Shown one piece after another: positions 10,384 to 11,802 of a DNA stretch of 64,000 bases. The position numbers and the translations under genes are program-made. The notes below the pieces were generated by a model. The model searched no databases. It worked only from the letters and a program-made list of their open reading frames with translations, and was not told the origin of the DNA. Location: sequence record PQ666541, one strand, 5' to 3'. Origin of the DNA: Shigella phage sb3. Every line of letters starts with the position of its first letter. The first letter of the stretch is position 1.

Positions 10384-11802
10384 TTATGGATAGGTATAGA
10401 TGATACCAGTTTCTAAAGCAGTTTTATGAATGATGTATCCATTGCGTGATTCTTGAACATCAACTTCTGGATAGTCTTTCATCATCTTCTGAAGAGTGTA
10501 ACGATGCAGGTAGTATTTACTATCTGGATCTTCAGTTTTCCAATCTTTACCTTCTTCGGTCATTTTTTGGATTTCATCCATAACCCACCAACCGCACCAG
10601 ATATAAGCTGAAGTACGATGTGGAAGAGGATGAACATAAGGCAATTCACCTTCTGGTTCCGGAGCAACTTTATCAGTTACCTGAACTTGACCAGTCGCTT
10701 TAACTGTTTTACTATCATAGTCAGTTGCTGTAACGACAGCAGTAACTTCAATAGTTTGACTTCCAACAGATGAGGTATCGACAGTATATACATTAGTTGA
10801 CCCTTCTACTGGAGAAGAATCTTTCTTCCATGAATACGCAATTTGCGCTTCTTCTGGAGCATCAGTAACATTAGCCGTAAATGTAGCTGAAGCATCTTGC
10901 TGAACGTTAATAGAAGGAGGAGTCAATGTAACCTGTGGATTCATTGTCTTCTTATTAACTGTTAATGATACTTCATTAGAAGTAACTTCCTTTTCATTGT
11001 AATTTTCTGCAGTTACTTGCGCTACACACTTAACTGTTTTAGCTCCAACTGTGGTAGGAGTATAGTTAAATGTAGTAGTAGTTTCTCCATCGACCAGAGA
11101 ACCGTCAACATACCACTGATACGTAGCAGACGCTCCTGGTGGCTGTGAAGCCAAGGTAGCAGTAAATTGAACTGGGGTTCCAATAACTCCTGCTGGAGGA
11201 TTAGCAGGAGTTACGGCTAACGTAGTTGTCTGTGTTTTCTTATTAACAGTCAGTGACACTTCATTAGAAGTAACTTCTTTTGTATCATAATCAGTCGCGG
11301 TTACTTGAGCTACACACTTGATTTTTTTAACTCCGCTTGTAGTAGGAGTGTAATTGAATGTAGCAGAAGTTGCTTCGCTTACAGGAGAACCGTCAACGTG
11401 CCATTGATACGTGGCAGTTGCGCCTGATGGTTGAGAAGCTAAAGCAGCAGTAAATTCAACAGGAGTTCCAATTACTCCAGCTGGAGGACTAGCAGGAGTT
11501 ACTGCTAAGGTAGTTGTCTGCGTCTTCTTATTAACTGTGATAGTTGTAGTAGCTTCTGCCGTTTCAGCATCAGTATCTGGAATTGTATTTGTTGCAACTA
11601 CTTTAATAGTCTTTTGACCGGCAGGTCCTTTTAGTACATAACTAAAAGTTGCTTCAGTTCCATCTTGTGGAACATCGTCTACAGTCCAAGCATAGGTAAT
11701 AGTTCCACCTCCAGTTTCACCACTGGGTGTAGCAGTAAACTGCTGAGTCTGATCAATAACTCCAGTAGGTGTTTTAGGAGTTATATCAACTGTAAAAGCC
11801 AT
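10384..11802 (-). CDS. hoc: Hoc outer capsid decoration protein with four Ig-like domains
   Basis: 472-aa ORF; N-terminus and C-terminal capsid-binding region recognised as Hoc; two consecutive ~96-aa repeats of about 80% identity. Confidence 0.9.
   Translation of the reverse strand: MAFTVDITPKTPTGVIDQTQQFTATPSGETGGGTITYAWTVDDVPQDGTEATFSYVLKGPAGQKTIKVVATNTIPDTDAETAEATTTITVNKKTQTTTLAVTPASPPAGVIGTPVEFTAALASQPSGATATYQWHVDGSPVSEATSATFNYTPTTSGVKKIKCVAQVTATDYDTKEVTSNEVSLTVNKKTQTTTLAVTPANPPAGVIGTPVQFTATLASQPPGASATYQWYVDGSLVDGETTTTFNYTPTTVGAKTVKCVAQVTAENYNEKEVTSNEVSLTVNKKTMNPQVTLTPPSINVQQDASATFTANVTDAPEEAQIAYSWKKDSSPVEGSTNVYTVDTSSVGSQTIEVTAVVTATDYDSKTVKATGQVQVTDKVAPEPEGELPYVHPLPHRTSAYIWCGWWVMDEIQKMTEEGKDWKTEDPDSKYYLHRYTLQKMMKDYPEVDVQESRNGYIIHKTALETGIIYTYP

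Follow-up and report, generated by a model that had tools for sequence, protein, structure and literature searches.

T4-like phages adhere to mucus and other surfaces by means of the Hoc fibre, which also serves as the display scaffold in vaccine and vector platforms based on T4. In T4 the protein consists of three Ig-like domains followed by a C-terminal capsid-binding domain, through which each gp23* hexamer carries a single monomer at its centre; the Ig-like domains make up a fibre of about 180 Å, and the protein is dispensable for growth (PMC10385173). Variation in the number of Ig-like domains in Hoc is already published. Homologues carry from 1 to 10 of them (PMC10385173), with four in Klebsiella phage PMBT63, two in PhiPNJ-9 and ten in Serratia phage Muldoon (PMC13435897, PMC11853027, PMC10385173). 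These three proteins, like the Hoc of RB49 (PDB 3shs), mount an Ig-like string of variable domain number on a conserved capsid-binding domain, but they are more distant in sequence from the protein described here and their extra or missing domains differ from its tandem units of domain 2 (D2). For the PhiPNJ-9 Hoc, binding of fucosylated MUC2 was reported to require S183, L184 and T185 in domain 2 (PMC11853027).

In the literature that we searched, variable domain number is mentioned in general terms and described for other cases, and we found no explicit account of a D2 tandem duplication in a T4-like Hoc. Here we analyse the hoc gene of Shigella phage sb3 (record PQ666541) within a window of 64,000 nucleotides, the whole stretch of DNA considered. 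The feature carried by this window is a common, old and inherited allele, and its exact 472-aa architecture has stood in GenBank for years (RB27, AR1, ime09, pSs-1 and HP3).

Results

The gene and its domains are the following.

10384..11802, minus strand: hoc, highly immunogenic outer capsid (head decoration) protein; ORF of 472 aa plus stop, phmmer match to T4 Hoc (5vf3_Z) with E 4e-211
11527..11802, minus strand: Ig-like domain 1 (D1, aa 1-92); aligns to T4 Hoc 1-92, beta-sandwich in the AlphaFold model
11239..11526, minus strand: Ig-like domain 2, first copy (D2a, aa 93-188), sequence type A; repeat unit
10951..11238, minus strand: Ig-like domain 2, second copy (D2b, aa 189-284), sequence type C; repeat unit
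10669..10950, minus strand: Ig-like domain 3 (D3, aa 285-378); aligns to T4 Hoc ~189-282, beta-sandwich in the model
10387..10668, minus strand: C-terminal capsid-binding domain (aa 379-472); nearly identical to T4 Hoc 283-376

The gene is flanked by inh and 24.3, an arrangement that T4, RB27 and pSs-1 share, and the T4 gene at this same locus is its homologue. Its neighbours in the window (rnlB, a 24.3-like DUF2774 ORF, inh and uvsW) keep the order that they have in these three phages, which is the position expected of a Hoc gene in a T4-like late region (gp24, rnlB, 24.x, hoc, inh, uvsW). The surroundings depart from T4 at two points. Only a 50-nt gap (12493-12542) separates inh (11812-12492) from uvsW (12543-14054), likewise in pSs-1; T4 carries segE, a GIY-YIG homing endonuclease gene, at this place, and segE is absent from both the window and pSs-1. 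On the other side, where T4 has the 92-aa gp24.2 between rnlB and 24.3, the window holds short ORFs only (9794-10066), one of which, of 33 aa (9803-9904), matches a 33-aa hypothetical protein annotated in pSs-1. Judging from these reading frames, the gp24.2 gene appears to be truncated or lost in the window.

One candidate transcription signal was found at the end of the gene.

10350..10367, minus strand: intrinsic-terminator-like hairpin (AAGGGGC-TTCG-GCCCCTT followed by a T run) directly after hoc; sequence and terminator scan

Just before it, at 10366-10388 on the minus strand, the hexamer TCATAA is repeated 3.8 times at the hoc stop, giving four in-frame TAA codons (TAA TCA TAA TCA TAA TCA TAA). 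Upstream, the exact T4 late promoter (TATAAATA) is missing from the hoc strand over positions 11700-12700, and a sigma-70 promoter scan gave scores no better than those of shuffled sequences.

The repeat within hoc was recovered by two programs. Tandem Repeats Finder reported a 288-nt period at 10945-11535 (2.05-2.1 copies, 80% matches, 0 indels, score 767), and a direct-repeat search paired 10945-11232 with 11233-11520 at 80%. In codon register the units correspond to aa 93-188 (11239-11526) and aa 189-284 (10951-11238), which are exactly the adjacent 288-bp units proposed in the earlier note; their identity, which that note had put at about 80%, is 79.2% at each level (228 of 288 nucleotides, 76 of 96 amino acids), and the peptide motifs that it quoted (TQTTTLAVTPA[S/N]PPAGVIGTPV ... 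EVTSNEVSLTVNKK) are found in the Hoc units as described. Such a similarity is far from what composition alone gives: adjacent 288-nt blocks of hoc reach 79.5%, against a mean best identity of 30% and a maximum of 35.4% in 100 hoc shuffles.

A near-identical linker, GTTAATAAGAARAC, encoding ..TVNK|KT.., is present at every Ig|Ig junction of hoc. The three occurrences, read from the sequence, are these.

11522..11535, minus strand: linker motif GTTAATAAGAAGAC (..TVNK|KT..), D1|D2a junction
11234..11247, minus strand: linker motif GTTAATAAGAAAAC, D2a|D2b junction
10946..10959, minus strand: linker motif GTTAATAAGAAGAC, D2b|D3 junction

It is because this motif recurs at the junctions that the repeat finder extended slightly past two copies.

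Profile and structure searches agree on an N-terminal string of Ig-like beta-sandwich domains of the PKD/I-set type. Against Pfam, PKD exceeded its cutoff (39.9 bits for a cutoff of 23.5), with its best stretch in the second D2 copy (aa 196-265), while Ig_3, I-set and Ig_2 stayed under theirs. The best stretch of the BiPBP_C, PKD_4 and Ig_2 matches fell in the first D2 copy, and the sub-threshold Ig_3 and I-set matches, starting from aa 289, fell in D3. Our D2 unit profile found two strong copies in the protein and matched D1 weakly (33.7 bits). The AlphaFold model, made from a 30-sequence alignment, predicts four beta-sandwich domains across residues 1-378, mostly at pLDDT of at least 90 (83-94 per 10-residue block in D1); the confidence of the C-terminal domain is low. 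When the model was compared with the PDB using Foldseek, the best matches were four-Ig fragments of Dscam1, Sidekick and ICAM-5, and RB49 Hoc (3shs) was also matched (E 6e-10). From the N-terminus, the window Hoc is predicted to consist of D1, D2a, D2b and D3, followed by the capsid-binding domain, and so to have four Ig-like domains where T4 has three.

T4 Hoc is 376 aa long (PDB 5vf3_Z; the RefSeq T4 hoc spans 110187-111317, 1131 nt; further records are PDB 8t1x and RefSeq NP_049793). The window protein aligns to it in two blocks, 1-190 to 1-190 and 272-472 to 176-376 (E 3.6e-120), and therefore contains one extra 96-aa domain 2. The alignment and the database lengths thus bear out what the earlier note had stated of T4 Hoc, namely 376 aa and three Ig-like domains, with the window protein exactly one domain longer; the four Ig-like domains that it proposed are backed by the unit profile and the model. 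Its count of four domains rather than three stands for the Ig-like domains and does not stand for the protein as a whole, which has five domains, versus four in T4, once the capsid-binding domain is counted. Nor does T4 Hoc share the four-domain structure, a possibility that would have undone the comparison: it has a single D2. This T4 unit is homologous to both window copies (79 of 96 residues identical to the first, 76 of 96 to the second), but it belongs to another type, B, whereas the window Hoc carries types A and C and is 96 aa longer. We considered the T4 D2 as a one-crossover hybrid of the two window units and rejected this, the shared residues alternating without any single switch; it is instead classed as a third type. 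At the C-terminus, homology to T4 Hoc ~281-376 is clear, and the dN between the two is 0.009 in this domain.

To which type a D2 unit belongs was decided from nucleotide identity matrices and clustering; position-diagnostic residues had been considered for this typing and dropped, as there are just three of them (140, 143 and 144), too few for the purpose. The three types are as follows.

Type A: first units of the window, pSs-1, UGKSEcP1 and RB27; within-type nucleotide identity 86-92%
Type B: T4, RB27 unit 2 and UGKSEcP1 unit 2; within-type nucleotide identity 86-90%
Type C: window unit 2, pSs-1 unit 2 and UGKSEcP1 unit 3; within-type nucleotide identity 97-99%

Units of different types share 76-83% of their nucleotides. 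The arrays are accordingly B in T4, A-B in RB27, A-C in the window and pSs-1, and A-B-C in UGKSEcP1; pSs-1 is like the window in this respect, whereas RB27, of the same length, has A-B instead. The first window unit is 86-87% identical to the first units of pSs-1, UGKSEcP1 and RB27 and 79-82% to the B and C units, and the second is 99% identical to pSs-1 unit 2 and 97% to UGKSEcP1 unit 3. The T4 unit is 89-90% identical to the second units of RB27 and UGKSEcP1. Compared as proteins, units that occupy equivalent positions in different phages are 0.86-0.90 identical, versus a mean of 0.78 for units within one protein, and a neighbour-joining protein tree places 39 of the 40 first-position units in one clade, together with 31 single-copy units and 0 later-position units. 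On these comparisons, the two D2 units of the window are assigned to distinct, old sequence types.

We extended the typing to 121 proteins (169 units clustered), in counts that rest on cluster representatives and a sample of records: B alone was found in 38, A alone in 32, A-B in 23, C alone in 11, A-C in 4 and A-B-C in 3, with a few other architectures. In these clustered arrays, type A nearly always precedes type B, and B precedes C.

Lengths of hoc across the T-even phages, which the earlier note had asked to be compared, fall into classes of 376, 472 and 568 aa, of which that of the window is common. An evenly spaced draw from 678 matching phage records yielded 50 full-length matches; hoc measures 1419-1425 bp in 20 of them, including RB27, AR1 and pSs-1, and about 1131 bp in the other 30, including RB14, RB32, T6 and a T4 derivative. 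It is likewise 1419 bp in ime09 and HP3. Among the best 120 protein clusters, 78 are at 376 aa, 29 at 472 aa and 7 at 568 aa, and with the D2 unit profile the number of strong copies in these classes is one, two and three, respectively. A junction-spanning DNA query was considered for counting four-Ig genomes and rejected: split pieces get joined, and three-Ig genomes would look fully covered.

The window Hoc belongs to the four-Ig class of Tequatrovirus, whose defining features are a total length of 472 aa and a tandem pair of 96-aa D2 units separating D1 from D3. It has the same length and the same four-Ig-plus-anchor architecture as the Hoc of pSs-1, RB27, AR1, ime09, HP3 and other Tequatrovirus, although over the whole gene its identity to database records is at most 94.5%. 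The 568-aa proteins, found in the Escherichia phages UGKSEcP1 and YUEEL01 and others (at least about 17 phage records), share the D2 unit family and the linker, but have five Ig-like domains and three D2 copies; in the UGKSEcP1 type, units one and three have their orthologues in the two units of the window, and the extra one, of type B, lies between A and C.

Compared with pSs-1, hoc is a mosaic by domain: identity is 99-100% in D2b, 84% in D3 and 83-90% in D2a and D1, amid flanks at about 97%. This pattern fits domain-wise exchange. The divergence forms islands at 10650-10799 and 11250-11700 (83-90%) within surroundings at about 97%. In D1, the dN against pSs-1 is 0.092 and the dS 0.145 (dN/dS ~0.6), much above the anchor domain.

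Discussion

Taken as a whole, the locus is very probably an intact, inherited hoc allele of the T4 family that encodes two tandem copies of Ig-like domain 2. In Tequatrovirus phages the D2 region is an array of one to three units of three types, set almost always in the order A, B, C, whose units were probably gained, lost and exchanged through in-register recombination; the near-identical linker at each Ig|Ig junction (GTTAATAAGAARAC) could provide the homology that aids such unequal recombination.

How two such different units came to lie side by side can be seen in another way, which is possible if somewhat unlikely: the units were never identical, unequal recombination at the conserved linker having joined two already divergent D2 alleles from co-infecting phages, so that D2 was tandemised and not duplicated and then diverged. 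Indeed, single-copy Hoc proteins are known for each type alone (A in 32 clusters, B in 38 and C in 11), hoc is mosaic at the scale of the domain between close relatives, and the linker motif supplies in-register homology. However, an old duplication followed by the repeated loss of either unit predicts an equal pattern, and the nearly fixed A-B-C order suits one ancestral array at least as well.

The age of the arrangement bears on a second alternative, a recent duplication specific to the lineage of the window phage. The head-to-tail tandem without indels is what such an event would leave. However, between the two copies dS is 0.77 and dN 0.12 (dN/dS 0.16), while the first 25 kb of the window are 97.4% identical to Shigella phage pSs-1, of the genus Tequatrovirus; the divergence between the copies is far above the approximately 3% that separates the window genome from its nearest relatives. 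Moreover, each D2 copy is closer to its orthologues in other phages than to its neighbour, and the 472-aa Hoc is present in many records. A recent origin is thus highly improbable. From the dN/dS of 0.16 and the dS of 0.77 we conclude that both copies have been under purifying selection and that the event is old. Concerning the differences that have accumulated, 12 of the 20 amino acid changes between the copies fall in predicted loops, against a background of 45%; this enrichment is not significant (Fisher p = 0.14), and therefore we make no claim of a loop-directed diversification.

Finally, the idea that errors in assembly or sequencing created the extra unit by falsely expanding the repeat has nothing for it beyond the general risk of mis-assembling repeats and can be dismissed as extremely improbable, given that 60 of the 288 positions differ between the copies (35 of them third codon positions), that the hoc reading frame is unbroken and that the identical architecture occurs in many independent assemblies; the earlier note had already considered an assembly duplication unlikely from the divergence of the copies, and its occurrence in many independently sequenced phages agrees. 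As judged from these sequence comparisons, the D2 duplication predates the window phage, and the inherited array is an old and widely shared allele which is not distinctive of its genome.

What would this allele do at the capsid surface? As the anchor domain is almost unchanged with respect to T4 (dN 0.009), the same capsid attachment is expected, and by analogy with T4 the C-terminal domain of the window Hoc would anchor one monomer per gp23* hexamer centre. The Ig string would project outward, making the fibre approximately one Ig domain longer than the 180 Å of T4. A second D2 surface would be displayed with it, including the second copy of the N-E-V-S-L-T motif, which occurs in the window Hoc at aa 180-185 and aa 276-281. 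Of the mucin-binding function, it is this motif that is present; it corresponds to the MUC2-binding residues mapped in the PhiPNJ-9 Hoc, a different protein with only two Ig-like domains. By analogy, we may reasonably infer a longer reach, or a higher avidity for mucin glycans, from the second D2.

One may go further and suppose that the D2 region is a recombining cassette array of A, B and C units, whose polymorphism is maintained as a means of tuning how far the fibre reaches, how avidly it binds glycans or how antigenic it is in mucosal habitats. We put this forward tentatively and regard it as rather unlikely; if true, in-register shuffling at the conserved linker would yield fibres of three, four or five Ig-like domains, which would be of moderate interest for phage-mucosa biology and for the engineering of T4 display. 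The number and type of Ig-like domains in Hoc could affect gut retention, immunogenicity and display geometry, and the natural series with one, two and three D2 units is ready-made for relating domain number to adhesion.

We found no description of the A/B/C scheme for Tequatrovirus D2 in the literature searched. It is a descriptive refinement and not a new kind of system; the window phage simply has one common natural hoc allele, which in itself raises no new question.

Among the public records of hoc, two that are named as T4 derivatives differ from each other: LR597660.1 (T4_ev151) encodes a 568-aa, five-Ig protein and LR597657.1 (T4_ev240) a three-Ig one of 1131 bp. Annotation oddities concern MG010123.1, MN648445.1 and the protein cluster P0011: a 32-kb record named Staphylococcus phage SAJK-IND contains a T4-like hoc at 90% identity, hoc is labelled 'baseplate wedge subunit' in phage FP43, and a Hoc cluster of 472 aa bears the name 'endonuclease [Shigella sonnei]'. 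In MZ501066.1 (Escherichia phage FriedrichMiescher) and PQ511148.1 the gene is annotated as 'Hoc part 1' and 'Hoc part 2', a sign that some Tequatrovirus genomes may have a hoc that is interrupted or frameshifted.
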